A stretch of DNA of 64,000 nt from Candidatus Micrarchaeota archaeon (GCA_043822385.1 JBDRBT010000014.1:164-64163); one strand, 5' to 3'; positions 22,377 to 56,338 are shown, numbered from the stretch's first letter. Numbers and translations: made by a program. The notes: generated from the sequence alone by a model not told the origin.

Positions 22377-23423
22377 TCAATACGTTCTAGTAATTAAATA
22401 ATCAGTAAGTGCTTTTAATTTTTGCGTTCCACTTCCTTCAGACAAAGTTTTTTCTACTTTCTCCCAAGTTTTCGTTGCTAGTTCTATAGCTTTCTTTTTA
22501 GCGTATTCAATTGAACCCGCGTCACTAATTATTTTTATTGCTTCCTCGATTAACACTTGATCTTTAGTGTGCAAATCAAGTATTTCACGCAAGCGCTTTG
22601 CTTTCGCGCTATGCTTCAAAGCATGAATAGTCATTAAAGTGCGTTTGCCTTCAGAAATGTCGCCGCCTATTTCCTTTCCATACTCAACATCAGCAATTAA
22701 ATTCAAAATATCATCCTGAATTTGAAACGCGATACCCAAGCTTTCCCCGTACTCGCCTAGTACTTTAATTGTTTCTTCTCCAGCGCCAGCTAAAACAGCA
22801 CTGAGTTTGCAAGCCATTCTACTCAAACAACCGGTTTTGAATGAAACCATTTGCAAGTATTCTTCCTCGCTTACTTCCTCCTTCAAACCCTTGTGCCAGT
22901 AAATATCCGTAGCTTGCCCTATTGACACGTTAATCATTTCAGTCAAGTAAACCTCGTAAAGCCTGGACTTCAAATTACTAGGTAAATCACTCTTCATTAT
23001 AGTGTTTAAGGGAATGAAATAAATCGCATTTCCAGCATTAACCGCAATATCCAACCCGTACAACAAGTGAATGCATTTTTTTCCTCTTCTTTCAAGAGAA
23101 TCATCCTCAATATCGTCTACAAGAAGTGTTCCGTTGTGAACTAGTTCTACTATTGCAGTGAAATCAAGTATTTCCTTGTAGTTTTTTCCTAATGCTTCGT
23201 AAACCATTAGCATTAACGCTGGCCTCCAGCGTTTTCCGCCGCGGTCAAGCAATTCCCAAACAGGTTCGTTTACGCCCCCATTTACTGCCTGCAAGTCTAC
23301 TTTGTAATTAATTTGGCCAACCGTTCTAGCAATAGCATCTTTATCGTATTTTTTAGGCAAGACTTTAAGCATTGCTTGCTCTATTTCAGGAACATACTTC
23401 TTGATTTCTAGTTTAATATCCAC
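22377..23423 (-). CDS. idsA: polyprenyl (geranylgeranyl) diphosphate synthase
   Basis: First Asp-rich motif LLVDDIEDDSLERRGK and second FQIQDDILNL. Length 348 aa. Confidence 0.9.
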   Translation of the reverse strand: MDIKLEIKKYVPEIEQAMLKVLPKKYDKDAIARTVGQINYKVDLQAVNGGVNEPVWELLDRGGKRWRPALMLMVYEALGKNYKEILDFTAIVELVHNGTLLVDDIEDDSLERRGKKCIHLLYGLDIAVNAGNAIYFIPLNTIMKSDLPSNLKSRLYEVYLTEMINVSIGQATDIYWHKGLKEEVSEEEYLQMVSFKTGCLSRMACKLSAVLAGAGEETIKVLGEYGESLGIAFQIQDDILNLIADVEYGKEIGGDISEGKRTLMTIHALKHSAKAKRLREILDLHTKDQVLIEEAIKIISDAGSIEYAKKKAIELATKTWEKVEKTLSEGSGTQKLKALTDYLITRTY

Positions 23424-23507
23424 GCTTGCTTCCCCCTAATAAATTCCACCCACAACAATTTATTAACTACACTTGAGTTGAGTAATTATAAAAAAAGATG
23501 ATTGAAA

Positions 23508-24386
23508 ATGGATTTTGTTAAAGCACTCACTGAAACACTCAGGTACTCAGTAATTTGGTTGAAAAAACCTTTTCCAACTGCGTATTACACTGCAGTAGCA
23601 GCAGTTCTAGTAGGCATAACCGTAATTGGAATAGGCGTAGTATTGTTTTTCGCTAGCATTCTAGCTAATATTTACGCTGGAGCTCCGACGCAAATAGCTG
23701 TTGAAACAGCTAAAGCCATTAGCTTGGGTTCACTTGGGTTAATTGCTTTCCTAGTTTTTTCTTTCATAGGCGGAATTCTTCTTTCAGCAGCTAACGTGTT
23801 TATTTACTCTGATGCTTTAGCAAGGCAAAAAATAAAAGTGCGCCCAATGAATTGGCGGGATTTCGTGAAATTCTTTTTCCTGCAAATATACGTTTCAATA
23901 GCCGCATTGTTTTCGTTATACTGGCCTTATCCTTTGTTTGCAGTACTCGGGTTGGGCTTATTGACGTACATTACGTGGATTAGCGTTCAGTGGATAGCGG
24001 TAGTGCCGGGATTCTTACTGGTTTTAAGCGTGTTGTTTTACTTCGCTAACATAGTATACCAATCAATGAGGCTAGTGTTCACGCCTTTTTACTTTATTAC
24101 TGAAACAAACAGCATTACTAACGCAGCTTCAAAATCCTTAGACTTAACTAAAGGAAAAACAATCAAAATATTCGGCTTGATTTTCTTAAGCAGTTTAATA
24201 ATTACTACCTTGATTCAAGTGGGAATTGAAGTAATCAAGTACCCGCTTGGTTTCTTAATACTCGTATTCCCGCCAGCAGCATTACTAGCATTATTACTTT
24301 TGGCTGCAATAGCGCTAGTAACTATATTCGCAGTTGGTTTTGCGTTAAGTAAAACGTTTTACTTGTTTAATAAAAAACTAGTTTAA
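23508..24386 (+). CDS. polytopic membrane protein, hypothetical
   Basis: About 6-7 hydrophobic helices. ATG 23508 (MDFVK) is preferred to TTG 23502. No prenyltransferase Asp-rich motif was seen. Confidence 0.55.
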   Translation: MDFVKALTETLRYSVIWLKKPFPTAYYTAVAAVLVGITVIGIGVVLFFASILANIYAGAPTQIAVETAKAISLGSLGLIAFLVFSFIGGILLSAANVFIYSDALARQKIKVRPMNWRDFVKFFFLQIYVSIAALFSLYWPYPLFAVLGLGLLTYITWISVQWIAVVPGFLLVLSVLFYFANIVYQSMRLVFTPFYFITETNSITNAASKSLDLTKGKTIKIFGLIFLSSLIITTLIQVGIEVIKYPLGFLILVFPPAALLALLLLAAIALVTIFAVGFALSKTFYLFNKKLV

Positions 24387-24781
24387 ACTACTTTGAATTT
24401 GAAGCCGTAAGCAATAATACCTTCGTCACCGTCTTCAAATATTTTCCTGAAAACCATTTTAACTCTAGCGTCAATAAGCACTTTTTCGTCAGGCGTTTCA
24501 ACTATTTGACTCAAAATTCGCACGCCGTTAGTTAACTCTATTATCGCTATGTAGTAAGGCGTTTCGTGCTGGAAACCAGAAGGCGCAGCGAAAACTCTAG
24601 TGAAGGAATAAATTTTTCCTTCGCGAGGCATTTGTTTTTTTATTAGCTTTCCTTTACTCCTGCAAACAGGGCAAATAGTTCTTTGCGGAAAGAAGTCGCC
24701 CTTGCAATTCACGCAGTGAGTGCCTACTAGTGAATACCGTTCCGGAATTTTCCTCCAAATTAATGGCAACGCGTTCCTCAT
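24383..24781 (-). CDS. DUF35 Zn-ribbon/OB-fold protein (thiolase-HMGCS complex subunit)
   Basis: 132 aa with CVNCKGDFFPQRTICPVCRS and an OB-fold tail. It is the last gene of the HMGCS-thiolase-DUF35 operon, with overlapping junctions. Confidence 0.85.
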   Translation of the reverse strand: MRNALPLIWRKIPERYSLVGTHCVNCKGDFFPQRTICPVCRSKGKLIKKQMPREGKIYSFTRVFAAPSGFQHETPYYIAIIELTNGVRILSQIVETPDEKVLIDARVKMVFRKIFEDGDEGIIAYGFKFKVV

Positions 24782-25944
24782 TCACCTAACCTCTTGTAAA
24801 CATGAATAACTGCGGTAGCACCACTACCGCCAACATTATGACTCAACGCATACTTTGCGTCATCAACTTGCCTCTCGCCGCATTTTCCTTGCAGTTGCCA
24901 CAAGCACTCTACTGCTTGTTTCACGCCAGTAGCACCAACAGGGTGACCGCAAGCCTTCAAGCCACCGGAAGTATTTACTGAAATAGTTGAATTCAATTGA
25001 GTCTCACCGTCTTCAACAGCCTTTCCACCGAATCCTTTTTCAAAGAAACCCAAGTCTTCGATAGCCATTATTTCAGCAATAGTAAAACAATCATGAACTT
25101 CAGCTAAATTAATGTCTTTAATCTTAATGCGAGCTTGCTCGAAAGCTTGTTTCGCAGCTACTTTAGTTGCATTAATGCTAGTTAAACTCTTTCTGTTAGC
25201 TAAAGCAAGAGTATCACTCGCTTGGCTTGAAGCAATTATTTCAACTGGAATCTCGCAATAATTTTTCGCTACATCACTGGAAGCTAGAATTAAGACCGCA
25301 GCACCGTCACTAATCGGTGAGCAATCAAATAATTTCAAGGGCGAAGCTACTTGAGGTGAATTCATTGCAATTTCTAAAGAAATCGCTTTCCTGAATTGAG
25401 CGTACTCGTTGTGAACAGCATTAGCATGATTTTTTACAGCGCATAAAGCCATTTGTTCTTCGGTAGTACCGTACTCTTGCATGTGTCGTTTAGCCATTAA
25501 TGCGTATAAAGCAGGAAACGTTGCTCCATTAAATAATTCCCACTCTTGGTCTCCAGCTCCACCTAATGCTAAAGAAGCTTCTTCAGCACTAACTTCAGTC
25601 ATTTTTTCTACTCCACCAACAGCAACCACGTCGTACATTCCTGAAGCAACAGCTTGGTAACCCTGGCGTAAAGCAACTCCACCTGAAGCGCAAGCTGCTT
25701 CACAACGCGTTGAAGGCAAGGGATTCAAACCCAACTGGTCTGCAATTAAAGCACCAATATGTTCTTGACCAAGCAAACGCCCGGAAGCCATACACCCGCC
25801 GTAAATAGCTTGCAATTGTTTTCCTTCAACTCGTGCTTCCTTCAATGCGCGCGCTCCAGCTTCAGCAACCATTTCCCTAAAACTAACGCTCCAGTGCTCG
25901 CCGAAGTGCGTTAATCCGCCACCAATAATAGAAACACTCCTCAT
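24778..25944 (-). CDS. acetyl-CoA acetyltransferase (archaeal thiolase)
   Basis: 388 aa. Active-site context CEAACASGGVAL and the C-terminal GHPVGATG...NVGGSGAT. Confidence 0.9.
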   Translation of the reverse strand: MRSVSIIGGGLTHFGEHWSVSFREMVAEAGARALKEARVEGKQLQAIYGGCMASGRLLGQEHIGALIADQLGLNPLPSTRCEAACASGGVALRQGYQAVASGMYDVVAVGGVEKMTEVSAEEASLALGGAGDQEWELFNGATFPALYALMAKRHMQEYGTTEEQMALCAVKNHANAVHNEYAQFRKAISLEIAMNSPQVASPLKLFDCSPISDGAAVLILASSDVAKNYCEIPVEIIASSQASDTLALANRKSLTSINATKVAAKQAFEQARIKIKDINLAEVHDCFTIAEIMAIEDLGFFEKGFGGKAVEDGETQLNSTISVNTSGGLKACGHPVGATGVKQAVECLWQLQGKCGERQVDDAKYALSHNVGGSGATAVIHVYKRLGE

Positions 25945-26984
25945 TACTCAACCGCCTTTAATTTCTTCATGTGTTTAATGTAAGAAGAATAATCGATATA
26001 CTCTTTGTTAGCAATTAATTCCTTAACTGAAGGAATAGTTCTTTGTTTCTCGAGTTCTTTAGTTGCTTTTAAAGCAAAAGCATCACTTCCAGCACCAGAA
26101 CCATAAGAAACCACTAGAATTTCGTCGCCAGCTTTTGCTTCATCTAACACTGCAGCCAAACCAAGCATTGAAGCACCGGAATACGTGTTCCCGATTAAAG
26201 GAGCAAGCAAGCCAGTCATTATTTTTTCTTTCTCAATACCAACTTTTTTAGCTAAAACTAAAGGAAACTTGCCGTTCGGCTGGTGCAAAACAACGAAATC
26301 AAAATCATTAACTTTCTTCTCGATTTTATTCAAAAGACCGTTTAAAGCAGCTGAAACGTGTTTAAAGTAACCAGGCTCTGCAGTAAAACGACCAGTATGC
26401 GTTGGATAGCGAGCGTGTTGCCTCCTCCAAAAATCAGGAGTATCAGTAGTAACCGAGTAAGTAGCTTCAATATTAGCTATAATCTTGTCTTTACCAATCA
26501 AGAACGCCGCGCCGCCAGAACCAGCTGAAAATTCTAAAGCATCATTAGGCCTGCCTTGAGCAGTATCAGCACCCACAGCAAGTCCAACATCAATCATTCC
26601 CGAATCAACCATACCCATGCAAGCTTGAATTCCGGCAGTACCTGCTTTGCAAGCAAACTCTAAGTCAGCTGCAGTTAATTCAGGGGAAGCGCCAATAGCT
26701 TCAGCAACAATAGTGGCAGTTGGTTTTACTGCGTAAGGCTTGCTTTCGCTCCCAACGTAAATAGCTTGAATTCTTTGCGCGTCAATGTTGAAGGAATTAA
26801 TTGCGTTTAACGAGGCTTCAACTGAAATAGTAGCTGAATCCTCATCAAAAGCAGACACGGCTTTTTCTTTAATTCCTAAGCCTTTAGAAGTTTGCTCTGC
26901 ATTCTTACCCCATACCCTAGCTATTTCCTCGACTTTAATCCTGAAACGCGGAATAAACGCGCCGTAACCAATAATACCAGCCAT
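25944..26984 (-). CDS. hydroxymethylglutaryl-CoA synthase (archaeal type)
   Basis: 346 aa. [47 protein letters not shown]. Confidence 0.9.
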
Positions 26985-27069
26985 AAAAATAACCCTTTAA
27001 AAAAACGAACTTAACTAACACTACCAACAATCGTTAAAAAACTTAACTAACATCGTTGTTTGACGGACG

Positions 27070-28029
27070 TTACAATCGCGCGGAGAGTTTTTCAATCATG
27101 TCTTTAGTCATTGACTGCAAGTCGTAGTCAGGCTTCCAACCCCATTCTTCTCGAGCAGCGCGGTCGTCAATAGAACTCGGCCACGAGTCAGCTATTGCTT
27201 GCCTGAAGTCAGGCTCGAAAGAAACTTTGAATTCCGGAATTTCTTTCTGAATAGCAGCAGTTATCTCAGTAGGAGAAAAACTCATTGCAGCTAAATTAAA
27301 GTCAGTCCTGTGTTTTAGTTTAGAAGAATCAGCTTCAGCTAAATCAATAATAGCCTTCAACGCATCAGGCATGTACATCATTGGCAACGTTGAATCTGAA
27401 CGCAAAAAACACTTGTACGGCTCTTTTTTTACGGCGTAATAATAAATTTCTACAGCGTAATCCGTAGTACCGCCGCCTGGAGGCGCAACGTTACTAATAA
27501 TACCTGGAAAACGCACTCCACGCACGTCAACACCGAATTTCTTGTAATAGTAATTACCGAGTAATTCGCCGTGCACTTTAGAAATACCGTACATAGTGCT
27601 TGGCTTGAGAATGGTTTCGTTAGGAGTATTGTTTCTCGGAGTTTCAGGACCGAATACAGCTATTGAACTCGGAACCATTAATCTCTCTAATTTTTTTTCG
27701 CGAGCAACTTCGAGAACGTTGTAAAGAGAAGTGTTATTCACGAAGTAAGCTAACTGCGGGTTTTTTTCTCCAACAGCAGACAAAATAGACGCTAAATGGT
27801 AAATAGTGTCAACCCCGTTTTCAGCAACGGATTTTTCAATTAATTCTTTTTTAGTAGTATCGATTACTTCACACGGTCCTGCAGCACTCCACTCGTTACT
27901 CACTTGCAAGCCTGAAGCAATCACGTTTTCCTTGCCGTACTTTTTTCGTAATTCGGGAACTAATTCAGAACCAATTTGACCAAAAGCGCCAGTAACTAAA
28001 ATTTTCTTCACTTGCAAAATGCACCCCAA
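27070..28029 (-). CDS. tdh: L-threonine 3-dehydrogenase, SDR/epimerase-like type
   Basis: KKILVTGAFGQIGSELVPELRKKYGKENVIAS, YGISKVHGELL, GGGTTDYAVEIYYYAVK, LPMMYMPDALKA. These strongly resemble the UDP-glucose-4-epimerase-like TDH family. The start is ambiguous (TTG 28029, TTG 28017 or GTG 28011, with GGGGTG nearby). Confidence 0.75.
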   Translation of the reverse strand: MGCILQVKKILVTGAFGQIGSELVPELRKKYGKENVIASGLQVSNEWSAAGPCEVIDTTKKELIEKSVAENGVDTIYHLASILSAVGEKNPQLAYFVNNTSLYNVLEVAREKKLERLMVPSSIAVFGPETPRNNTPNETILKPSTMYGISKVHGELLGNYYYKKFGVDVRGVRFPGIISNVAPPGGGTTDYAVEIYYYAVKKEPYKCFLRSDSTLPMMYMPDALKAIIDLAEADSSKLKHRTDFNLAAMSFSPTEITAAIQKEIPEFKVSFEPDFRQAIADSWPSSIDDRAAREEWGWKPDYDLQSMTKDMIEKLSARL

Positions 28030-28150
28030 GAATTTCTTAACGCATAATTCGAATAATTAAGGATAAAAAACCAATTCCATTCGCCGATTGTCGTTGTTAG
28101 TGCGTTTAATAAATTTTTGAAACACAAATACAAAGCAAGGTGATTTTATT

Positions 28151-29341
28151 TTGAGAAACTCCGCGTCTTTCCTTAAAGAAGAATACGATTCACTAGTAGC
28201 ACAAAGCTTGGATTGGAAAATAAAAAAACTCCAAGGCGCGTCTCAACCTCACTCTATAGTTGACGGAAAAAACGTGTTAATGCTTTGTTCAAATAATTAC
28301 TTGAATTTATCTAACCACCCTAAATTAAAGGAAGCTGCAATCAAGGCAGTTGAAACTCACGGTGCAGGAAGCGGGAGTGTTCGAGCAATAGCTGGAACAA
28401 TGGACTTGCACTTGCAACTAGAAAAAAAAATAGCTGAATTCAAGCACGTTGAAGCCGCTCTTTATTATCAAACTGGTTTCGCAGCTAACGCAGGATTAAT
28501 TCCGCAACTAATTGGTAAAGAAGACTTAGTAATAAGCGATTCATTGAATCACGGCTCTATTATTGACGGAGTACGGTTAACGAAGGCAGAGAGAGCGATT
28601 TACCAGCACTTGGACGTAGCTGATTTAGAAAGAGTTTTGAATGAGGCAGAAAAAAAACCAACTCCACCGCGAAGAATACTAATTATTACTGACGGAGTAT
28701 TCTCAATGGATGGCGACATCGCGCCCTTAGACAAGATTACTGCGTTAGCTGAAGAACACGGAGCAATGGTTTACGTTGATGACGCGCACGGCGACGGCGT
28801 TTTAGGAGAAAAAGGCCGCGGAATAGTTAACCACTTTCGTTTGGAAGGTAGAGTGCACGTGGAAATGGGTACTTTCTCTAAAGCGTTCGGAGTAGTTGGA
28901 GGAAGCATTGCGGGATCAAGTGACTTAGTTAATTTCGCGTTAAACAAATCCAGAACTTGGTTGTTGAGTGGTAGCGCGCCTTCAGCAACAACCGCAGCTT
29001 GCATTGCTGCTCTAGATGTTTTAGAAACAGAACCGGAACACGTTCAAAAATTGTGGGAAAACACTCGTTACTTCAAGGAACAATTAAAGCAACTTGGTTT
29101 CGATACGGGAATTTCCGAGACGCCGATTACGCCTGTAATGGTTGGCGAGAGCGCTAAAGCCAAGGAATTAAGCAACATGTTGTTCGAACTCGGTGTTTTT
29201 GCGTTACCAATCATTTTCCCAATGGTTGCTAAAGACAAAGCACGCATTCGCACAATGATGAATGCGGGACTCTCAAAGGAAGATTTGGATTTAGCGCTTA
29301 ATGCTTTCGAAAAAGCCGGAAAACAACTAGAAATAATCTAG
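28151..29341 (+). CDS. kbl: 2-amino-3-ketobutyrate CoA ligase (glycine C-acetyltransferase)
   Basis: SNNYLNLSNHP, GAGSGSVRAIAGT, DDAHGDG, GTFSKAFG (PLP lysine). 396 aa, TTG start with a GGTGA RBS. Confidence 0.85.
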   Translation: MRNSASFLKEEYDSLVAQSLDWKIKKLQGASQPHSIVDGKNVLMLCSNNYLNLSNHPKLKEAAIKAVETHGAGSGSVRAIAGTMDLHLQLEKKIAEFKHVEAALYYQTGFAANAGLIPQLIGKEDLVISDSLNHGSIIDGVRLTKAERAIYQHLDVADLERVLNEAEKKPTPPRRILIITDGVFSMDGDIAPLDKITALAEEHGAMVYVDDAHGDGVLGEKGRGIVNHFRLEGRVHVEMGTFSKAFGVVGGSIAGSSDLVNFALNKSRTWLLSGSAPSATTAACIAALDVLETEPEHVQKLWENTRYFKEQLKQLGFDTGISETPITPVMVGESAKAKELSNMLFELGVFALPIIFPMVAKDKARIRTMMNAGLSKEDLDLALNAFEKAGKQLEII

Positions 29342-29419
29342 CTAACCACTTTAACGGATGCAACAAAAAAGATAAATAACTAGAAAAAACACTTAAATCA
29401 AAGGCAAGGAGAGAAAAAA

Positions 29420-30541: not shown

Positions 30542-30599
30542 CGTTCGTCAATCGACTATTTAGAAATCGCTTTAAATCCCGCGATTAAAGAAGGTTTTA

Positions 30600-31880: not shown

Positions 31881-31987
31881 CGTTCGCACATATTTTTAAT
31901 ATCTTGAGTTTGCTTCATCACTTACAGAAAAAAACACAGGCTCATATCTCGAATAAAAAATATTTTAAAAAAAACAGGGGGTAAAAA

Positions 31988-33876: not shown

Positions 33877-33881
33877 CGAAA

Positions 33882-34718: not shown

Positions 34719-35650
34719 CTCTATTAATACTAGACATTGATGAAGTTTTTCGCCACATGACTAAAGCAAACGCAACAAACAACGCTTTAAAGGAATACGG
34801 CGTCGAAATAAAGAATTTTGATGACAAAACCAGGGATGAAATACTTAATTTTGGGCGGGAAAAAAACAAGTTTTTCACTGAACGCGGACAAACTATGGGC
34901 ACGCTTTACGCGCTAGCTAAAAACAAAACAAACATTAAAGAATTACAGGAAATGGCTAAAAACAGCCCGAGTAAAGCAGAAGAAATAATAGAAACCGCTC
35001 GAAAAAACGTAAAGAACGAATTAACGCCGGAATTCGAAAAAGAACTAGGACAACGCTTCAAGGAACACAACTACCCCATGGAAGAAAAAATCCTAAAAAG
35101 CATAGACTTCGAGCACAAAAACGCTCTACAACGGTTGTTAAAAACGCATGACGCAATTTTTGTTACTAGCTCAGATTCAGCGTCAACGCGCGCCTGGCTC
35201 AACACGCACGGTTTCGAACAAATACCGTTAATCGGCAGGGAAGACGTTCCTCTTGACACTGAAGGAAAACCTAAAACAAAACCCGCACCCCATGCTTACT
35301 GGAAAGCACTAACTAAAAAGAGTTCGACCGGCTTGCTTATTGACGCGCCTAAAGAAGTGATTATAGTAGGCGACGCGAAAGGCGATATGGATGCGGCAGT
35401 AAACACTGTAAACGCGTTGAAAAAAAGGTTTAAACAAAACAAAATCAAACTAACAAAATGCCTGGTGTTAAGTGGAAAAACAGAATCAGAATTAAAGAGT
35501 ATTGCAACTGCAAAACCAACTCATGTTTTCAAGGATTTTACTGATTTTGCTGAACACACAGATAATCTAGAAAAACTGAAAACAATGCAAGCAGAAGGAG
35601 CTTCATTCAAAATAAGCTCAAAAGCAGTGGAAAGAATAATAGAAAGGTGA
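34715..35650 (+). CDS. HAD-superfamily protein 2
   Basis: Motif I LILDIDEVF, motif II AIFVTSSD, motif III GKPKTKPAP, motif IV IIVGDAKGDMDAAVN. ATGA overlap with the upstream gene. Confidence 0.7.
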   Translation: MTLLILDIDEVFRHMTKANATNNALKEYGVEIKNFDDKTRDEILNFGREKNKFFTERGQTMGTLYALAKNKTNIKELQEMAKNSPSKAEEIIETARKNVKNELTPEFEKELGQRFKEHNYPMEEKILKSIDFEHKNALQRLLKTHDAIFVTSSDSASTRAWLNTHGFEQIPLIGREDVPLDTEGKPKTKPAPHAYWKALTKKSSTGLLIDAPKEVIIVGDAKGDMDAAVNTVNALKKRFKQNKIKLTKCLVLSGKTESELKSIATAKPTHVFKDFTDFAEHTDNLEKLKTMQAEGASFKISSKAVERIIER

Positions 35651-35654
35651 GAAA

Positions 35655-36797
35655 ATGATGTTGCAACCAGAATTAGAAAAACAAACAGAAGAAACTACTC
35701 GCGCGATAATAAGCCGATTAAAAGAAATTGGTTGGACTGAACCAACTAAAACAACACCTAGCGCAACAGTAGACGGCGAAGCGTTAGTGGAAGCAAACTC
35801 TATTCTAGGAATAGAAAAATACTTGGGAATGGTTGACAAGAAACTGAGAATAGCTTACTTTTCTTCAATAAAATTAACAAATAACTCGACGGTTACTAGA
35901 ACGTACGTAAAGTTTGACGCTTCATTACAAGAAGACCTAGTATACATCGCTGGAAAAGAAGCTGGAGAAAAAGAAAGGAACAGAATACTAACCGCAGTAA
36001 ACGCTTACCGCGAATTAACCGGAATCAACAGCAAAATTTTATACGCATCTCAAAACACCTTCAAAGGCGGAAACGAAGGAAAAGGCTTAGGCACTAGTGC
36101 GGCGGCGGGCGCAGCCCTAGGCGCAGCACTAGTTCAAGCATCAATGCCTAAGCTTTTCAAGGAAACTTACTTTGTTGAATCAATAGCCCGGCTAGTAGCT
36201 GGCTCTGCCCCTCAATCAATAGCAGGCGGATTTTCAGTATGGCTATCAGATGCATCATACTTAAAAAAACCAAACGAATCTTACAGCGTTCGAATAGACA
36301 AGGGCGATTTCGACGTAAAACTAGTCGTCATCCCTATTCCTCAAGTTGCTAAAACTGAAGACGCGCACGAAGCAGCAGTCAAATCACCTCATTACTTAGA
36401 GTGGGTTAAGAAAAAGTGTTTCACAGTACCTCACTTGATGGAAGCAATAATCAACAAGGACTTGCAAGCAATAGGCGAACACGCTGAAGAAGACTCTCAG
36501 TGGCTAAACAAAATTATTACTACGGGCGGCGGAATAAACAACTGGGTTGAAGACACGGAATCTCTAAGACAAGCAGTAATAAACTTAAGGAAAAAACAAG
36601 GCTTGTTAGCTTACTACTCAATGGATACCGGGCCGTCAATAGCGGTTTTAACGAACGCGCATGACGCGGAAGCAGTGAAAAACGGTTTGGAAGAAGCACT
36701 AGACCGGAAATACGCGGGAAAAGCATTTATTGCTGAAATGGGTGGCGGACCAAAAATCCTAGATCCCAGCAAAAAAACTGAATTAATACGTACGTGA
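35655..36797 (+). CDS. diphosphomevalonate-decarboxylase-family protein, candidate mevalonate-3,5-bisphosphate (or phosphomevalonate) decarboxylase
   Basis: 380 aa. ANSILGIEKYLGMVDKKLRIAYFSSIKLT (cf. NIAxIKYWGKxD...SxSxTL), GKGLGTSAAAGAALGAAL, ARLVAGSAPQSIAGGFSVW, YYSMDTGPSIAVL. AGGTGA RBS. Confidence 0.65.
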   Translation: MMLQPELEKQTEETTRAIISRLKEIGWTEPTKTTPSATVDGEALVEANSILGIEKYLGMVDKKLRIAYFSSIKLTNNSTVTRTYVKFDASLQEDLVYIAGKEAGEKERNRILTAVNAYRELTGINSKILYASQNTFKGGNEGKGLGTSAAAGAALGAALVQASMPKLFKETYFVESIARLVAGSAPQSIAGGFSVWLSDASYLKKPNESYSVRIDKGDFDVKLVVIPIPQVAKTEDAHEAAVKSPHYLEWVKKKCFTVPHLMEAIINKDLQAIGEHAEEDSQWLNKIITTGGGINNWVEDTESLRQAVINLRKKQGLLAYYSMDTGPSIAVLTNAHDAEAVKNGLEEALDRKYAGKAFIAEMGGGPKILDPSKKTELIRT

Positions 36798-37561
36798 GCA
36801 CATTGATCACTACCCTTGTTTTTGACGTGGACGGCATTTTACGAAATTCAGGACCAGCAATACACTATTTCCTCAACGAAACACTCAAAAAAGAAGTTGG
36901 GTGGGAAATTCCTTTCGGAGAAAAAGAGCACTTAGCAATTAGGGGTAACTGGAAAGAATTCTCCAACATAAAAACTACGCTTCCAGTAGTATTTGCTGTA
37001 AAAAAAACAGGTTTAAATGTAAAAAAAATTCTTGAGGCCAAGAATGCTAAAGAAACGTTAATGCAAATATACAAAGAAAACCCAACAGACGAAAAAACTA
37101 TTGAAACCCTTTACCAGGTTTTCATGAAACAATATACTAGCTTAGATAACGCATCGCTAAAAGCAGTAAACCCAATTCCAGACTGTTTTAAAGCGGTGCA
37201 ACAATTAGCAAAAAAATACAAACTAGCTTGTTTTTCAGACAGCAGTTCCAAACTCCATGAAGCTTGGCTAACTTATTGGAACGCCAAGCACTTTTTTCAA
37301 GCGAACATAGGGATCGAAGAAAGCAAAGCTAAAAAACCAGACCCAAAAGGGCTTGAACTAGTTAGCGCCGAGCTGAAAACTAAACCTGGAGAAATGGCTT
37401 ATATCGGCGATAGCACGATAGATATTGAAACTGCACGAGCGTTTGGTTGTAAAAGCATCGCGATCAGTACGGGTTTTGCAAAAAAAAGCGAATTATTAAA
37501 AAACAAGCCAAATTTCTTTTACGAAAACTTGCAAGAATTAGTTAACGCTAATCTCGGGTAA
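36794..37561 (+). CDS. HAD-superfamily protein 3 (canonical DxDG)
   Basis: Motif I LVFDVDGIL, motif II LACFSDSS, motif III KAKKPDP, motif IV AYIGDSTIDIETARAFG. GTGA overlap with the upstream gene. Confidence 0.75.
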   Translation: MSTLITTLVFDVDGILRNSGPAIHYFLNETLKKEVGWEIPFGEKEHLAIRGNWKEFSNIKTTLPVVFAVKKTGLNVKKILEAKNAKETLMQIYKENPTDEKTIETLYQVFMKQYTSLDNASLKAVNPIPDCFKAVQQLAKKYKLACFSDSSSKLHEAWLTYWNAKHFFQANIGIEESKAKKPDPKGLELVSAELKTKPGEMAYIGDSTIDIETARAFGCKSIAISTGFAKKSELLKNKPNFFYENLQELVNANLG

Positions 37562-38363
37562 TAGTCGTTCCCATCACTTTTTTACCAAGCAAGGCGTCTT
37601 CAAAACGGCCTGGCGCGTCGCCGTTAATTATTTGCACTTCAACACCCATTTGCGCTACGTCAATCAAGCGCTCGAGCTTGTGAAGCATTCCGCCAGTAAC
37701 GTCTTTGCCTGCAGCGCCCTTTACGTTGTATTTCATTTCCTGAAAACGAGCGCGGTTCAATACAGCGATAGGCGCCTCGCCTTTAGCTGGAGGAAAGTTT
37801 TCGAACACGCCGTCAACATTACCAACCATTATTACGCGAGCAGGCTTCAATTCCTTGCTTAAGTAAAACAAGATTTCGTCAGCAGAAATAATCGAGCAAC
37901 CCTGTTTCTCGTCGAGAACAGCGTCGCCGAAAGGAACAGGCACGAAACCCTCCTTCAAAAAGAGTTTTAACGCACTCAAATCCCAGTTCACAATCCTGCT
38001 GTCGCGAGCAATTACGCCCGCAGAAGTTTGTAACGAAACCGCGTGCAAGCCAGCTTTCAACAAATTATCAATAACAATCCGGTTTATTGTGCTCGCGGCA
38101 TCCTGCACTTTAGCAAAACCAAGCTTGCTGTCCGGCTGAATAAACCCTTTATGTGTTTCAAACTCGTGAGCATGTTGGTGAGGAAAAGAACCACCGCCAT
38201 GCGCTAAAACTAATTGCCCGGGATTTTTCTTGGTGAATGCAAGCGCTTCCTTGCCTAAACGCGCTATAGTTCCGGGTTTTGCAGTAAACGCCATAGCCTT
38301 GTCGGTAATAACGCTTCCACCAAATTTAACCAAAACCAAGTTCTTCAAAAAATACACACTCAA
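37548..38363 (-). CDS. ipk: isopentenyl phosphate kinase
   Basis: Amino-acid-kinase fold. LVKFGGSVITDK, LAHGGGSFPHQHA, VTGGMLHKL. 271 aa. Convergent 14-nt overlap with HAD-3. Confidence 0.85.
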   Translation of the reverse strand: MSVYFLKNLVLVKFGGSVITDKAMAFTAKPGTIARLGKEALAFTKKNPGQLVLAHGGGSFPHQHAHEFETHKGFIQPDSKLGFAKVQDAASTINRIVIDNLLKAGLHAVSLQTSAGVIARDSRIVNWDLSALKLFLKEGFVPVPFGDAVLDEKQGCSIISADEILFYLSKELKPARVIMVGNVDGVFENFPPAKGEAPIAVLNRARFQEMKYNVKGAAGKDVTGGMLHKLERLIDVAQMGVEVQIINGDAPGRFEDALLGKKVMGTTITRD

Positions 38364-38437
38364 TAGTCAATATGTTCCTCACTACTTAAAAATACAAAGG
38401 CGTACATTATTATTATTAGAAAACCTGTGACAAAAAA

Positions 38438-39850
38438 ATGAAAACGCCTTTTCTCAAAATTAAACCAAATTCTCTCGAAAGCGTTGTTTTCAAAGTAATG
38501 GGCACAACTGATTTCGAAACGCCCTTAGACCACACTACAGTTCACCCTAAGGTTTGGCGCGTAATCAACAACAACCGGCCCGAAGGAATACACAAACACG
38601 GCGCTAATCCACCAGGTAGAATGAATCACAATATTCTAAAACTACCTGTAGACGTTTTTGAAGGAAAAAGAAAAAACGAGTTAGATTTAATAAAAAAAAC
38701 AATCAAAAAAACTAAAGAAGTTAAAGAATACTTGGAAATAAACCCCGAAGAAAAAAAGAGCTTAAACCGAGTTATTAACCACGCTATTTTCCTTCACACA
38801 CTAAAATCACCTTATTACTGGAGGACGTCACTTACCGCTGACCCCAAGTACCATAAATCGATTTACACTGAAGCTCAAAACATTCCGGCGGAAATGAACC
38901 GACACAATGCCCGCGAGCTAGCGAAGTTCGCTCACGAAAAACTAAGTGCGGGGCAAAAAGAATTCATATTTATGGATACGGGAACTGGTTTGGGCACTAC
39001 AACTCGTTTTGTTCTGGAAGAAATTCAAAAAATAAATCCAGACCACTTGAAGAAAATCACAGTAGTACTTAACGACATTGATAAAAAAACCTTAACGCAA
39101 GTAGGGGACAAATTAAAACAAGATTTCGGAGTCAAATTAGAACTACTTCCTTCAACTTTCTATGTTGCAATTCAAGCATTAAAAACAAAAGGAATGAAAG
39201 AAGCGTGGAGAATGGCGGATGAAGAAGTTTACGAAAAAATGCAGAAACTAAAAGGAAGACTAGATGCGTATACGTCCTTTGCTTCCTGGAACAACTTACC
39301 TCACTCGGAAATAGCTTTCAAAACAGTTAAAGCACTATTGAAAAAAGGGGGTAAAGCGTTTTTGGGTGATTGGGGGGGCTATGACATTACTCAAAAAGAA
39401 TTCACTCAAAACGAACTAGACCGAAAAATAAACGCAGAAGGAAACGTTACAGTACGAAAAAATATCAAGGGCTTCTGGTGGTTTTGGCTTCACCACCACG
39501 GCTGCATTGATTTGAATACGAACCAACAAAAATGGTGGCGCAAACTAGAACGCCACATAGACACTGCAGACAAAGTAAATGTTTTAAACTGGTTCAACTC
39601 AAACTACAAAAAAATGGAGGCAGAACGAAAAAAACGCGGGAGAAAATACACTTTCTTTGGTTACGCTAACCGAGCTTACCGCACTCCAGAAATGGTTCGA
39701 AACGCAGCAGTAAAAGCAGGTTTGAAAGTAAAGTATGTTGGTTATCCGCTAGCAAACAAGAAAACAACTGAAAACGGCAGCATCACGTACGAACCGCACA
39801 ATCCTCGCTTTGTCACTTGGCACGCGATACTTGAAAAAAGGTCAGGTTAA
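38438..39850 (+). CDS. orphan protein with class I SAM-methyltransferase-like core
   Basis: 470 aa. FIFMDTGTGLGTTTRFVLEEI resembles SAM-binding motif I, and VVLNDID resembles motif II. Long unique N- and C-terminal regions. Confidence 0.45.
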   Translation: MKTPFLKIKPNSLESVVFKVMGTTDFETPLDHTTVHPKVWRVINNNRPEGIHKHGANPPGRMNHNILKLPVDVFEGKRKNELDLIKKTIKKTKEVKEYLEINPEEKKSLNRVINHAIFLHTLKSPYYWRTSLTADPKYHKSIYTEAQNIPAEMNRHNARELAKFAHEKLSAGQKEFIFMDTGTGLGTTTRFVLEEIQKINPDHLKKITVVLNDIDKKTLTQVGDKLKQDFGVKLELLPSTFYVAIQALKTKGMKEAWRMADEEVYEKMQKLKGRLDAYTSFASWNNLPHSEIAFKTVKALLKKGGKAFLGDWGGYDITQKEFTQNELDRKINAEGNVTVRKNIKGFWWFWLHHHGCIDLNTNQQKWWRKLERHIDTADKVNVLNWFNSNYKKMEAERKKRGRKYTFFGYANRAYRTPEMVRNAAVKAGLKVKYVGYPLANKKTTENGSITYEPHNPRFVTWHAILEKRSG

Positions 39851-39888
39851 CCACAATCATAATAAACAAAAAAGAAATAAAACACGTA

Positions 39889-40446
39889 ATGAAATTAGGC
39901 TTGGTTTTGGCGGCAGACACTATTGTTGCAGACAAAAAACGAAAGGAAGTCGCTGACGTCGAAACAGCGCTATCAAACAAACTACAAGAAATACGAAACA
40001 ACAACTCAGTGACAAAACGCTTAGCGCTCGAACGAGTAGCTAAAATGAAGGCAAACAACGAAATCACGAAAATAAAGAAAAAGAAAATACAGAACCCTGA
40101 AAAAGGATTCATTCAAGCTGCTTATGCCCGGCTGGAAAAAGCACTTGAATTATACGAAAACAAAAAAATAGACAAGATAATAGTTACTTGCGACCACCCC
40201 ATAGGCTTCCCTCACGAGGGGCCCAGAATGCATGAAATCAGTGCTGCGTGGTTAAGGAAAAACGGCGTGCCTGAAAAAGACGTTCTGCGCGTAACTAACT
40301 CGCGGTGGACACTTGAAGAAATAGCCGGAATGAAACAACACATAAACGAACAAAAACCGGAAGAAGTGCACGTGATTACTTCTGATTTTCACGTTGAGCG
40401 AGCGCTAGAGTCATTCAAGCAAGCATTCCGCGAGTCAAAACAATAG
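39889..40446 (+). CDS. DUF218 (YdcF/SanA-like) domain protein, possibly 3'-truncated by frameshift
   Basis: KIIVTCDHP..., EISAAWLRKNGVPEKDVL, SRWTLEEIAGM, VHVITSDFHVERA fit DUF218. An alternative frame continues for 31 more codons after an A-run. Confidence 0.55.
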   Translation: MKLGLVLAADTIVADKKRKEVADVETALSNKLQEIRNNNSVTKRLALERVAKMKANNEITKIKKKKIQNPEKGFIQAAYARLEKALELYENKKIDKIIVTCDHPIGFPHEGPRMHEISAAWLRKNGVPEKDVLRVTNSRWTLEEIAGMKQHINEQKPEEVHVITSDFHVERALESFKQAFRESKQ

Positions 40447-40534
40447 GACATGCAGTAAAAACAATAGAAGACAAAGGTTTGCCGGGAGAAGAAAAACGAG
40501 TACTCAGAGATACAAGAAACGCCAGAAAAATACG

Positions 40535-40984
40535 CTAGTCTTCAAAGCCTTTTTCGCGCAAGTGGTTAACGTAATTCCTCCAGCTGGACTCAATTAGTTT
40601 CTTGTCGTCTTGAGTGCAATCGCGAAGTTTTTTCGCAGGCACGCCAGCCCACAAACCCTCAACCACACTACCAGGGATTACAACAGAACCAGCAGCAATA
40701 ATACTCCAATCCTTCACTACCGCCCCGTCAAGAACGGTTGCATTAAGTCCTATCAAAACATTAGAACCAATCTTGCAACCATGCAATACTGCCGCATGGC
40801 CAACAGTCACGTTATTACCAACGCTAACCTCCGCATGCAAAACGCAGAACTCTTGCACATTAACGTTATTGCCAATACTAATAGAGCCCTCGTCGTCATT
40901 CAAAACACAGAAAGGAGCAGCATAAAAATTCTTTCCAAAGGAAACAGACTCACCTAAAACTGCTTTATCGCTAACGAAACTCAT
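40535..40984 (-). CDS. gamma-carbonic-anhydrase-like / hexapeptide-repeat (LbH) protein
   Basis: Hexapeptide repeats: IGNNVNVQEFCVLHAEVSVGNNVTVGHAAVLHGCKIGSNVLIGLNATVLDGAVV, followed by GVPAKKLR. The start is set at internal ATG 40984 (MSFVSDK). Confidence 0.8.
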   Translation of the reverse strand: MSFVSDKAVLGESVSFGKNFYAAPFCVLNDDEGSISIGNNVNVQEFCVLHAEVSVGNNVTVGHAAVLHGCKIGSNVLIGLNATVLDGAVVKDWSIIAAGSVVIPGSVVEGLWAGVPAKKLRDCTQDDKKLIESSWRNYVNHLREKGFED

Positions 40985-41085
40985 AACTAAAAAAATACAA
41001 TAAAGAAATATTAAACCCAACCAGCTCCTTAAAAAAGCCATTAAATTAATATACATTAAAAATAAATGAATTTAATGGTGAAAGA

Positions 41086-41346
41086 ATGAACATAAGCATG
41101 CATTTCGAGGGGTATTCAGAAAAAATAATTGCGGAAGCATTAAAACAAGGCATTGTAAAAACCAAAGCAGAAGCACTTAGGTTAGGCTTACTAGAATTAA
41201 ACCAAAAATACGGCTTAGTCGCCACTAATTTAGAAGAGTTAGAACTTCAACAAGACTTAAAAGAAATCGACAGAATCGAAAAAGCAATTAAAACCGGCAA
41301 AACTAAGCTTTACAAAGCAAAGAGCCTTGATGAAATATTCAGGTAA
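41086..41346 (+). CDS. putative antitoxin
   Basis: 86-aa ORF ending 5 nt before the RelE/ParE-like toxin gene. The size and position are typical of a type II antitoxin. Confidence 0.5.
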   Translation: MNISMHFEGYSEKIIAEALKQGIVKTKAEALRLGLLELNQKYGLVATNLEELELQQDLKEIDRIEKAIKTGKTKLYKAKSLDEIFR

Positions 41347-41351
41347 AAGCA

Positions 41352-41600
41352 ATGGAATACCAACTAGCTTACACCGATGAATTTAAAAAAGACGTGAAAA
41401 AACTAGACGCGTCAATGAAACCACGCGTAAAAAAAGCAATAGAAAAAATAATTCAAGAACCAACTCGATTTAAACCCTTAGAACACAAGGCAAATACTTT
41501 TAGAGTAAGATTCAGCGTATACCGTTTAATTTACAAAGTAGAAAAAAACACAATACTATTATTACGTTTGGGAAAAAGAGATGACGTCTACGACGACTAA
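41352..41600 (+). CDS. RelE/ParE-family type II toxin
   Basis: 82 aa. FKKDVKKLDASMKPRVKKAIEKI...FRVRFSVYRLIYKVEKNTILLLRLGKRDDVY is the typical RelE/ParE pattern. Confidence 0.7.
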   Translation: MEYQLAYTDEFKKDVKKLDASMKPRVKKAIEKIIQEPTRFKPLEHKANTFRVRFSVYRLIYKVEKNTILLLRLGKRDDVYDD

Positions 41601-41637
41601 CATTAGTTTTTAATCACTAAAGTAATATTTATTTAAC

Positions 41638-42645
41638 ATGAGTCAGATAAAAAAGCGGAAAGAAGAACACGTTGAAATAACACTCAAGAAAGACGTGGAC
41701 TACAAACTAAAACGCACTGGCTTTAATGACGTAGAATTATTGTATTACGCGTTGCCTGAAATTAATTACAAGGAAGTAAGCACGCAAACCAACTTTTTAG
41801 GATTCAAGCTGAAAGCACCACTATTAATTTCTTCAATGACTGGAGGCTATGAAAAAGCAACGAAAATAAATCGCGATTTAGTTACTGCAGCGCAAGAAGA
41901 AGGAGTAATGGTTGGTTTGGGAAGCATGCGCGCAATGCTCAAGCACCCTGAGCTCTGGAAAACGTATTATTTCAAGAAGGAAGCGCCTAAAGCAATTGTT
42001 TTCGCTAACTTCGGCGCAGTGCAATTACTAGAGTATTCGCCAAAGCAAGTTAGTGACGCAGTCAAGAAAATCGAGGCAGATGGTTGCTTTATTCACTTGA
42101 ATGCGTTGCAGGAAGTAATCCAGCCAGAAGGAGACAAAAACTGGCGCAACGTCCTTCAGAAAATAAGCAAGTTGTGCGACCATTCCGACTTCCCGATAAT
42201 AATTAAAGAAGTAGGAGCAGGAATAAACGGGGAAATAGCGCGAGAACTCCAAGAAGCGGGAGTAAAAGCAATTGACGTTGCTGGAGCAGGAGGCACTAGT
42301 TGGACTGGCATTGAAGTACACAGGAACGGTGCTCCGGAAGGAAGTTATTACTGGGACTTCGGCATTCCAACTCTAAGTGCGTTAAGACAATGCAAGAAAA
42401 CATGCTCGCTTCCATTAATAGCATCAGGCGGAATTCGAAGCGGACTAGATTGCGCTAAAGCAATTCGATTCGGCGCTGAATTATGCGGTGCAGCTAAACC
42501 CTTCTTGAAAGCGCAAGCCAAAAAAGGAAAAAAAGGAGTAGTGGAAGAAATTCAGTCATTCAAACGCGGTTTGGAAATAGCAATGTTCTTAACTAGAAGC
42601 AAAAACCTAGACCAATTACAAAGAGCTAAACTATTAACAGACTAA
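41638..42645 (+). CDS. fni: isopentenyl-diphosphate delta-isomerase, type 2 (FMN-dependent)
   Basis: KRKEEHVEI, LLISSMTGG, IIKEVGAGI, DVAGAGGTSW, ASGGIRSGLD. 335 aa. Confidence 0.9.
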   Translation: MSQIKKRKEEHVEITLKKDVDYKLKRTGFNDVELLYYALPEINYKEVSTQTNFLGFKLKAPLLISSMTGGYEKATKINRDLVTAAQEEGVMVGLGSMRAMLKHPELWKTYYFKKEAPKAIVFANFGAVQLLEYSPKQVSDAVKKIEADGCFIHLNALQEVIQPEGDKNWRNVLQKISKLCDHSDFPIIIKEVGAGINGEIARELQEAGVKAIDVAGAGGTSWTGIEVHRNGAPEGSYYWDFGIPTLSALRQCKKTCSLPLIASGGIRSGLDCAKAIRFGAELCGAAKPFLKAQAKKGKKGVVEEIQSFKRGLEIAMFLTRSKNLDQLQRAKLLTD

Positions 42646-44615: not shown

Positions 44616-44778
44616 AAAAATCTCCTCCCAACTATTGAAAAATCAAAAAACATTACTCACTTGGTTTTTAAATTAATGCGCTTGCAAACTCTTTTAAACG
44701 CTTTCTCGCATTAACTATTCTTACTCTTTTTTTAAGAATTCAATGAACTATTGGGATAAAACCCGGAATGGTGAGAAA

Positions 44779-56296: not shown

Positions 56297-56338
56297 AAAC
56301 GCTAGGTTTTTAAACTCGGTTCGGCACGATAATTACGT

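Follow-up and report, generated by a model that had tools for sequence, protein, structure and literature searches.

The 64,000-nt stretch of DNA analysed here (the window) comes from a Candidatus Micrarchaeota archaeon, and all genome-level statements below refer to these 64 kb. Between 22.4 and 42.6 kb it carries a cluster of mevalonate pathway genes, which an original prediction, made from the sequence alone, had described as a near-complete route from acetyl-CoA to geranylgeranyl diphosphate (GGPP) in one neighbourhood of about 20 kb. The genes named there were found as open reading frames (ORFs) in the ORF list, their identities were upheld by Pfam and NCBIfam profile searches, and the gene families present cover all steps from acetyl-CoA to a prenyl diphosphate. 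The cluster is surrounded by housekeeping archaeal genes (S8e, TFB, histone, S2, GluRS, L7Ae, ValRS, S15, S3Ae, TBP, Rpb4 and 5S rRNA), and the closest relatives of several of its proteins are found in Micrarchaeota metagenome-assembled genomes (MAGs). The region is best explained as an intact, vertically inherited isoprenoid-precursor neighbourhood whose genes would take acetyl-CoA through every step to a prenyl diphosphate of short chain length, probably C20.

Three adjacent genes on the minus strand (24383-26984), overlapping by 1-4 nt, form a DUF35-thiolase-HMGCS module. The archaeal 3-hydroxy-3-methylglutaryl-CoA (HMG-CoA) synthase, HMGCS, is encoded at 25944-26984 (TIGR00748, 531 bits, cut-off 353; NF003274, 536 bits) and the archaeal-type acetoacetyl-CoA thiolase at 24778-25944 (NF004720, 563 bits, cut-off 420; AcCoTHIOL_METTL, 556 bits), the latter gene having a 4-nt overlap with that of a DUF35/OB-fold zinc-ribbon protein (24383-24781; PF01796, 66 bits, and PF12172). 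Work on Methanothermococcus proteins has established that DUF35, thiolase and HMGCS proteins form a complex, and by this analogy the DUF35/OB-fold protein may be the partner of the other two. The gene for HMG-CoA reductase (HMGR) lies on the plus strand at 30600-31880 (PF00368, 360 bits). The enzyme is of class II, as it passes the class II model (TIGR00532, 423 bits, cut-off 260) and fails that for class I (TIGR00533, 43 bits, cut-off 442).

Genes for the conversion of isopentenyl phosphate (IP) into prenyl diphosphates lie to both sides. Isopentenyl phosphate kinase (IPK) is encoded on the minus strand at 37548-38363 (NF040647, 219 bits, cut-off 120), convergent with the end of the operon described below, and a type 2 isopentenyl-diphosphate isomerase (IDI2) on the plus strand at 41638-42645 (TIGR02151, 390 bits, cut-off 281). 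A short-chain trans-prenyl diphosphate synthase occupies 22377-23423 on the minus strand (PF00348, 227 bits). Its best NCBIfam matches, IdsA (217 bits) and GGPP_syn (184 bits), are both under their equivalog cut-offs; from its sequence it is probably a GGPP synthase (GGPPS). The first of its Asp-rich motifs is DDIED and the second DDILN, motifs that we take to be those of a type III-like GGPPS.

The lower pathway is encoded by an operon of six genes on the plus strand (31988-37561). The original prediction had recognised this operon correctly but not its content, as only three of the genes belong to the pathway and the other three encode proteins of the haloacid dehalogenase (HAD) superfamily. 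In order, the products are a protein resembling mevalonate 3-kinase (M3K), HAD1, a P-loop kinase of the COG2074 family, HAD2, a decarboxylase and HAD3. The intergenic gaps are -1, -4, -4, +4 and -4 nt and, judged by this spacing, the operon is translationally coupled.

The first protein, M3Kl (319 aa; 31988-32947), is a kinase with the fold of mevalonate diphosphate decarboxylase (MDD). Its best NCBIfam match is the M3K model (NF040848, 130 bits, versus 67 bits for the models of diphosphomevalonate decarboxylase, DMD, and phosphomevalonate decarboxylase, PMD), and its best PDB sequence match is Ta1305, the M3K of Thermoplasma acidophilum. The AlphaFold2 (AF2) model (mean predicted local distance difference test score, pLDDT, 95) has as its top structural match the same species' M3K (PDB accession no. 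4rkz; template modelling score, TM, 0.89). M3Kl lacks the decarboxylase catalytic Asp and Lys, TAGGG replacing MDAGP and IIFVAS replacing KYWGK, as is also the case for Ta1305. It retains the GHMP loop GSSDSGA, the Arg of SESAIRS and the loop residue Arg185, which is essential in Ta1305 (PMC9254496). Taken together, the profile, the PDB match, the modelled structure and the active-site pattern mark this protein as mevalonate-3-kinase-like. Homologues are present in Micrarchaeota, Iainarchaeota/Diapherotrites and Aenigmatarchaeota (up to 80% identity) and in Heimdallarchaeota (about 36%), and identity to the M3K loci of Thermoplasmata type is 25-33%.

The P-loop kinase (281 aa; 33873-34718) belongs to a family that includes 2-phosphoglycerate kinase (2PGK) and mevalonate-3-phosphate 5-kinase (M3P5K). 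It possesses the Walker A motif GGLPCTGKT and matches the 2PGK model (NF003259, 139 bits) slightly better than the M3P5K model (NF008996, 130 bits), both scores being below cut-off; a PDB sequence search with it gave no match. A species-representative genome scan with the M3K-like protein yielded 80 loci. Of the DPANN/Asgard-type loci, 43 extend far enough to either side, and in 37 of them the P-loop kinase gene adjoins that of the M3K-like protein. Thermoplasmata-type loci have the two side by side only once in 26 cases, the single case being a Micrarchaeota MAG. The adjacency of this pair is the constant feature across the cluster variants. In one Iainarchaeum locus (AUK171; L043, 9977-12752), the P-loop kinase is flanked by two M3K-like paralogues (335 and 313 aa, respectively 34% and 31% identical to M3Kl), with no gene of the Asp-bearing decarboxylase type.

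The decarboxylase, MDD380 (380 aa; 35655-36797), is a member of the MDD-fold family (PF22700, 91 bits) that resembles both the decarboxylase of mevalonate 3,5-bisphosphate (MBD) and PMD, with NCBIfam scores of 144 bits for PMD, 136 for MBD and 106 for DMD, all under the respective cut-offs. The catalytic Asp (MDTGP) and Lys (EKYLG) are retained: the segment YYSMDTGPS aligns with YFTSDTGTS of the Picrophilus torridus enzyme (PtoMBD), in which D309 is the essential catalytic Asp (PMC9254496). Several features are those of an MBD. The N-terminus is about 40 residues longer than in DMD and PMD, as in MBD with its extra helix alpha1 (residue 49 of MDD380 is aligned to residue 63 of the 7t71 chain and to residue 9-15 of SeMDD); this extension is shared with PtoMBD, as is an insertion of three residues that precedes the GHMP loop; and EKYLG fits the MBD form EK[YF]LG, not the KYHG of PMD-like proteins. 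The Arg found in SASRS of SeMDD and in SGTRS of PtoMBD is replaced by Gln. The nearest relative (P0122) likewise has Gln there, six further clade members have Ser, and in P0125 the alignment leaves a one-residue gap. In neighbour-joining (NJ) trees (100 bootstraps; PDB fragments as references, experimentally characterised PMD sequences not being among them), these Arg-less decarboxylases are monophyletic with 96-98% support. Their next relatives form a group of about 390 aa that retains the Arg and is matched equally well by the PMD and MBD models; the Thermoplasma-type MBD clade, also Arg-bearing, nests among this group, and a group with 100% support holds both MDD380 and that clade. This is a small family, of which 22 representative clusters were found at E <= 1e-30 in a set of 1.84 billion proteins, and the Arg-less clade appears to be undescribed in the literature searched.

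As the original prediction had remarked, no classical mevalonate kinase (MVK) is present in the window. This was confirmed by Pfam scans, which took in the sizeable ORFs and left out a few overlapping or short ones, and by a phmmer scan in which MVK, phosphomevalonate kinase (PMK)-like and MDD queries were run against all stop-to-stop frames of 60 aa or more. The phmmer scan matched only the two MDD-fold genes, so that no MVK, PMK or other GHMP kinase was found in the 64 kb, and neither DMD nor AcnX/UbiD enzymes are encoded there. Two candidates were dismissed along the way. A weak match of an MVK/PMK query at 44698-45219 (E=6e-4) is the L7Ae gene, and the product of a 373-aa orphan gene within the cluster, considered as a cryptic GHMP kinase, has no GHMP glycine-rich loop and gave no phmmer match with the MVK or MDD queries.

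From the families, active-site patterns, gene coupling and conserved synteny, we infer a route in which M3Kl would phosphorylate mevalonate at O3 to mevalonate 3-phosphate, the P-loop kinase would phosphorylate the latter at O5 to mevalonate 3,5-bisphosphate, and MDD380 would remove the 3-phosphate and CO2 to yield IP. IPK would then convert IP to isopentenyl diphosphate (IPP), IDI2 would convert IPP to dimethylallyl diphosphate (DMAPP), and the prenyl synthase would produce GGPP (a C20-type diphosphate). Given the presence of IPK, the product of the decarboxylase should be IP, not IPP. We consider it somewhat probable, at roughly 0.6, that the cluster runs this Thermoplasma-type (M3K) route by means of distinct, deeply diverged DPANN enzymes. 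The likeness to the Thermoplasma type of a lower pathway composed of M3K-like, M3P5K-like and MBD-like proteins and IPK, together with a class II HMGR, had already been proposed in the original prediction, and here the family and profile evidence agree with it. The lack of MVK and PMK in the 64 kb, when every other step is clustered, also speaks for this route.

Compared with the Thermoplasma-type systems (T. acidophilum and P. torridus: Ta1305 as M3K, Ta0762 as M3P5K, Ta0893/PtoMBD, and IPK), the window encodes the same four protein families and, by implication, the same logic of two kinases, an IP-yielding decarboxylase and IPK. Other likenesses are the class II HMGR, the lack of an MVK nearby, an M3K-like protein without the Asp and Lys, and the MBD-like N-terminal extension of the decarboxylase. 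The two systems differ in that the genes of the window are clustered and coupled, whereas Thermoplasmata-type M3K loci are without an adjacent P-loop kinase or decarboxylase (the single exception among 26 was mentioned above). In addition, three HAD genes are interleaved in the window and the organism is apparently not of the acidophilic lineages.

A number of observations weigh against this assignment. All three signature enzymes lie far under the equivalog cut-offs: M3Kl reaches 130 of the 440 bits required by NF040848, the P-loop kinase 130 of 250 bits on NF008996, and MDD380 136 of 560 bits on the MBD model NF040847. For MDD380 the PMD model gives a slightly better score than the MBD model, and the protein lacks the Arg of a triad (Asp/Lys/Arg) that has been called invariant and needed for decarboxylation (PMC5177888). 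Its GHMP phosphate loop, GLGTSAA, is intact, which makes ATP dependence possible; the same loop is conserved in PtoMBD. Furthermore, in many related genomes the M3K-like/P-loop pair stands beside DMD and MVK genes, which indicates that the pair is not strictly tied to MBD. After the pair, these loci (L001, 8866-14591; L003/L032, L011, L013-L015, L024, L030 and L031) encode a bona fide DMD (269 bits on TIGR01240, above cut-off) as well as a mevalonate kinase (200 bits on TIGR00549). The occurrence of the pair next to complete MVK/DMD sets bears on how the variants of the mevalonate pathway arose from one another.

Several of these points would also fit a PMD route like that of Haloarchaea and Chloroflexota (MVK, PMD and IPK), in which MDD380 would act in an ATP-dependent manner on mevalonate 5-phosphate, MVK would be encoded outside the window, and the kinase pair would serve regulation or make a side product. 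In common with that route, the window would have an IP-producing decarboxylase followed by IPK, and the score of MDD380 on the PMD model is no lower than that on the MBD model. The preference for PMD is repeated in P0122 (138 versus 135 bits), the whole group of about 390 aa is intermediate between the two models, and both the intact phosphate-binding loop and the kinase pairs found alongside complete DMD and MVK sets (L001, L003, L011, L013 and others) are in keeping with it. Against such a route, besides the missing MVK, MDD380 is about 60 residues longer at the N-terminus than the haloarchaeal-type enzymes and carries EKYLG in place of KYHG, the orthologues in L010 and L025 favour the MBD over the PMD model (169 versus 145 and 178 versus 149 bits), and the decarboxylase gene is translationally coupled to those of both the M3K-like and P-loop kinases. 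The absence of the Arg is equally awkward for a PMD as for an MBD. A PMD route, although the main rival, is considered distinctly improbable.

The three HAD genes had not been singled out as accessory candidates in the original prediction. HAD1 (32947-33876), the start of which overlaps the stop of M3Kl by 1 nt, is HAD-IA-like (PF13419, 44 bits) and has a degenerate motif I, WDFGGP, in which Gly replaces the Asp at position +2 (D-F-G). In HAD phosphatases this Asp+2 of motif I is the general acid/base. HAD1 is similar over its full length to HADs of the DxG type in the Aenigmatarchaeota clusters L025 and L029 (E ~1e-14), and the DxG form also recurs in L024. HAD2 (34715-35650) is a highly divergent paralogue with weak Pfam matches and intact motifs (LDIDEV ... 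GDAKGD). It aligned to a profile of the cluster HADs with 97.9% probability (hhalign, E=4.5e-13, 238 columns), and a word-indexed search among 5.8 billion proteins returned no homologue but the query itself. HAD3 (36794-37561) is a canonical HAD-IA hydrolase (PF13419, 91 bits; FDVDGI ... GDSTID), and its orthologues come after the decarboxylase gene in L021, L025 and L029. HAD2 (DIDEV) and HAD3 (DVDGI) carry all four HAD motifs: I (DxDx[TV], with the nucleophile and the Asp+2), II (S/T), III (K) and IV (GDxxxD). On these sequence comparisons the trio are paralogues of one HAD-IA-like family. PDB sequence searches gave no match for HAD2 and only remote matches to HADs of the phosphoglycolate-phosphatase type for HAD1 and HAD3, these being the nearest solved structures to HAD3 at only about 38 bits.

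By analogy, the HAD trio most likely acts as small-molecule phosphohydrolases or phosphotransferases on phosphorylated intermediates of the pathway, in flux control, proofreading or salvage. Large inserts separate motifs I and II of these proteins at the site of C1-type caps, which suggests small-molecule substrates, in line with established HAD biology. A search of the literature gave no relevant report of a HAD or other phosphatase linked to the M3K route or to the mevalonate clusters of DPANN, and a HAD family recurring in such clusters appears to be undescribed there.

An alternative is a modified lower pathway, not described before, in which the HADs would be catalytic steps (shuffling of phosphoryl groups between the 3- and 5-positions, or removal of phosphate) and the Arg-less decarboxylase would act on an intermediate other than that of the Thermoplasma MBD. 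The coupling of three HAD paralogues between the kinases and the decarboxylase is suggestive of such a pathway, as are the monophyly of the Arg-less clade and the DxG variant, which has no general acid/base residue and is conserved in the window, L024, L025 and L029. All loci with an Arg-less decarboxylase (six of six complete loci and two truncated Iainarchaeum contigs) carry one to three HADs of the family inside the cluster, with two further Pfam-HAD genes in L021, and 19 of the 20 matches to the family in 83 related loci (L001-L083) fall within 6 kb of an M3K-like gene (binomial p=0.006, although these loci share ancestry and are not phylogenetically independent). On the other hand, HADs are common accessory phosphatases and membership of an operon does not make a pathway step, HAD2 has no detectable orthologue, so that the trio is not conserved as such, and HADs of the family also stand beside clusters of DMD/MVK type (L024 and L086) and in Altiarchaeota. 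We therefore regard a modified pathway of this kind as unlikely. In seven loci of Altiarchaeota type by title or similarity (L044, HAD at 2099-2764; L045; L049; L050, HAD at 9312-9965; L051; L052; L059), a HAD of the family adjoins the M3K-like gene, mostly in divergent orientation. Where the N-terminus is readable these HADs have a canonical DxDGT motif; the P-loop kinase gene is not adjacent, and GGPPS, IDI2, IPK and an MVK-like GHMP kinase are encoded nearby.

The related loci fall into three types according to the genes that follow the M3K-like/P-loop pair: type A, to which the window belongs; type B, in which the pair is followed by the DMD and MVK described above; and type C, found in acidophilic Micrarchaeota, in which it is followed by a Thermoplasma-type MBD (407 bits). 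This set of cluster variants, too, seems to be undescribed. True orthologous clusters, with identities of 40-72%, are present in Iainarchaeum (L009, L010, L022 and L028), Aenigmatarchaeota (L025 and L029) and another Micrarchaeota contig (L021). Like the window, these possess genes for HMGR, HMGCS, thiolase, DUF35, an MT470-like protein (a methyltransferase-like protein discussed below), HAD, M3K-like protein, P-loop kinase, a further HAD, Arg-less decarboxylase, IPK and IDI2, and their decarboxylases have Ser or Gln in place of the Arg, as in the clade of the window. The gene order of the window is found again in L009, L010, L021, L025 and L029, and IDI2 is syntenic after IPK in L009, L010, L025 and L029. 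Recurrence of the same syntenic genes in independent Iainarchaeum, Micrarchaeota and Aenigmatarchaeota contigs indicates that their clustering is not due to chance. The related clusters differ from the window in the number and position of their HADs and in the motif-I variants of these (DxE, DxN, DxG and DxD); in the Iainarchaeum loci the genes are on one strand and the block is more compact, and a GGPPS gene is nearby only in L028. In L022, where the Iainarchaeum operon is otherwise conserved, an inserted LAGLIDADG-domain ORF (423 aa; 6528-7799) separates the thiolase gene from that of DUF35.

In the type C operons of Ca. Mancarchaeum acidiphilum and Ca. Micrarchaeum A_DKE/harzensis, the M3K-like, P-loop kinase and decarboxylase genes are in the same order as in the window. 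Their M3K-like proteins are 55-56% identical to M3Kl and fall in the same DPANN clade, whereas the P-loop kinase, of 206 aa and with an M3P5K score of 247 bits, and the MBD (407 bits, Arg kept) are of the Thermoplasma type. Unlike the window, these operons contain no HAD genes, and the genome of Ca. M. harzensis has been reported to be without HMGR (PMC8975820), while the window has the full upper pathway. The M3K, M3P5K and MBD genes of acidophilic Micrarchaeota have been reported as transfers from Thermoplasmatales (PMC8975820). In contrast to this view of all three genes, the operon looks chimeric in the NJ tree: in Ca. Mancarchaeum acidiphilum (L002, 10001-12723) a DPANN-type M3K-like gene is combined with a Thermoplasma-type P-loop kinase and MBD, and the MBD of Ca. 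Micrarchaeum A_DKE (L016) is in the same clade.

A lateral acquisition of the pathway block had been suggested for the window in the original prediction, but no sign of recent transfer was found by the comparisons made. In a codon test of 20 cluster genes against 35 flanking housekeeping genes, neither the distance in relative synonymous codon usage (RSCU; p=0.79) nor the GC content of third codon positions (GC3; p=0.07) differed. Total GC is 0.410 in the cluster versus 0.387, but as GC3 and RSCU are level this is put down to amino-acid composition. The NJ tree of the MDD family places M3Kl in a clade of Micrarchaeota, Iainarchaeota and Aenigmatarchaeota proteins, apart from a separate clade of Thermoplasmata M3Ks (100% bootstrap for each). 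Orthologues of HMGR, HMGCS, thiolase, DUF35, the M3K-like protein, P-loop kinase, decarboxylase, IPK and IDI2 are syntenic in all seven orthologous clusters; for HMGR, HMGCS, thiolase and DUF35 the identities to Iainarchaeum-type contigs are 50-72%, with 59-61% for the DUF35 protein in L009, L010, L022 and L028. This grouping with their own lineage is what the original prediction had named as speaking against a transfer. The DPANN clade, the matching codon usage and the synteny together point to the supercluster being a lineage trait within DPANN and not a recent import.

A recent lateral gain of the block from Thermoplasmatales, the typical hosts of acidophilic Micrarchaeota, is therefore held to be extremely unlikely. 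Such transfers have been inferred in print for some Micrarchaeota, and in L002, L016 and L056 the M3P5K and MBD either score 247 and 407 bits against the equivalog models of the Thermoplasma type or branch within Thermoplasmata clades. The window does not share these features, given the low identity (25-33%) and separate clades of M3Kl and the Thermoplasmata-type proteins, the housekeeping-like codon usage and GC3 of its genes, and the syntenic orthologues across three DPANN phyla.

Between IPK and IDI2 the plus strand encodes a class I S-adenosylmethionine (SAM)-methyltransferase-like protein of 470 aa (MT470; 38438-39850) with a weak match to PF13489. Among the genes proposed as accessory in the original prediction, it is the one for which conservation was found, lying beside mevalonate genes elsewhere. 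Only ten homologues were detected, and the family adjoins mevalonate genes in all seven contexts examined: the window, L009 (6691-8031), L010 (7630-9033), L084 (6766-8217), L085 (2124-3557), L086 (4796-6211) and L087 (1701-3146). These contexts span several types of lower pathway, namely M3K, the AcnX/UbiD/UbiX 'archaeal-type' (L084) and DMD (L086 and L087), and in L009 and L010 the gene sits inside the Iainarchaeum superclusters. Invariant motifs of the family include RMNHN, DxGxGxG, NNLPHS, WDWGGxD, ANRAYRTPE and NPRFVTW. An AF2 model (pLDDT 86.9) compared with the PDB by Foldseek matched only generic class I small-molecule methyltransferases (TM <=0.36 on the query), and the family appears to be undescribed in the literature searched. 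In L085, an ORF for a HAD-NUDIX fusion of 445 aa (753-2090) adjoins the MT470 homologue and genes for a GHMP kinase, HMGR, HMGCS, thiolase and DUF35. Nudix hydrolases dephosphorylate IPP and DMAPP in other organisms, and by analogy the fusion points to control of the pathway by a phosphohydrolase.

The Arg-less decarboxylase, dedicated HADs (including the DxG form) and MT470 might together constitute a lower pathway specific to DPANN, with intermediates or control unlike those of the four described mevalonate routes, a proposal that we consider doubtful. Within it, the HADs could transfer or remove phosphoryl groups among mevalonate 3-phosphate, 5-phosphate and 3,5-bisphosphate, or could take part in an IP/IPP phosphatase cycle.

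Between the HMGCS operon and HMGR lie an 'SDR' and an aminotransferase gene, both of which are redefined here. The first (27070-28029, minus strand) encodes a GalE-like L-threonine 3-dehydrogenase of the short-chain dehydrogenase/reductase (SDR) type (PDB phmmer, E=5.7e-125 to L-threonine 3-dehydrogenases); it scores 361 bits against 3a1n_A, which is deposited as an NDP-sugar epimerase and which we take to be the Thermoplasma volcanium enzyme. The second, divergent from it (28151-29341, plus strand), encodes glycine C-acetyltransferase (Kbl, 2-amino-3-ketobutyrate CoA ligase; NF005394, 473 bits, cut-off 460). Together these enzymes could convert threonine to glycine and acetyl-CoA, a substrate of the pathway. 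The related clusters do not have the pair, nor does it show synteny with mevalonate genes in related loci, and this link may thus be coincidental.

The other accessory genes proposed in the original prediction fared less well than MT470, as neither the membrane protein nor the 373-aa orphan nor the gamma-carbonic-anhydrase (gamma-CA)-like protein was seen to be conserved in related loci. The membrane protein (294 aa, plus strand) has about eight transmembrane segments in a hydropathy scan, no Pfam or NCBIfam family, and no homologue in the 83 loci. Its gene was confirmed, with the start corrected from 23508 to 23502 according to the ORF list (23502-24386); a role as a UbiA-type prenyltransferase was considered, and no Pfam match was obtained. 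The 373-aa orphan (29420-30541, plus strand) is hydrophilic, rich in Lys, Glu and Asn, and likewise without a Pfam or NCBIfam family. A DUF218 protein is encoded at 39889-40446 on the plus strand (PF02698, 56 bits). A tblastn search against the related loci revealed no similarity to it, and the only hint of a link to the pathway comes from Mancarchaeum, in which a gene matching DUF218 in Pfam is located about 3.6 kb downstream of the cluster. The hexapeptide-repeat, gamma-CA-like protein (40535-41056, minus strand; PF00132, with the PaaY and gamma-CA models below cut-off) is probably unrelated to the pathway. Immediately upstream of IDI2 (41086-41600) lies a ParE-like toxin gene (82 aa; PF05016), preceded by an ORF of 86 aa without a family that is probably its antitoxin.

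Two features of the flanks may be mentioned. Scans of the window for tRNA and Rfam families gave a 5S rRNA gene as the sole match and no tRNA genes; this stand-alone gene (56337-56450, 67 bits) is directly 3' of an ORF of 107 aa that covers a single TBP repeat (region 55973-56450). An archaeal histone-fold protein (17257-17628) possesses a 60-residue N-terminal extension, the histone fold being residues 61-120 of 123.

The original prediction had also raised a broader distribution of the Thermoplasma-type route, which is correct and already published. In 2018 Hoshino and Gaucher reported class II HMGR from DPANN, together with homologues of M3K and MBD from a small number of Micrarchaeota (PMC6107057), and in 2022 the three key genes were described in Ca. 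Micrarchaeum harzensis by Krause et al. (PMC8975820). A survey from 2024 recorded homologues of M3K, M3P5K and MBD in Micrarchaeota and Altiarchaeota as well as in Aenigmatarchaeota and Heimdallarchaeia (PMC11052028). To this message of Thermoplasma-type genes in a reduced-genome archaeon the window adds a clean, complete cluster. It also offers three testable leads: a decarboxylase clade without the Arg, set against the rule of an 'invariant triad', the HAD family, and MT470 across three types of lower pathway. Should one of these turn out to be a genuine component of the pathway, it would provide extra parts for the engineering of ATP-sparing isoprenoid routes, and it would change how autonomy in lipid precursors is scored in DPANN archaea and, hence, which of them are called host-dependent or free-living.

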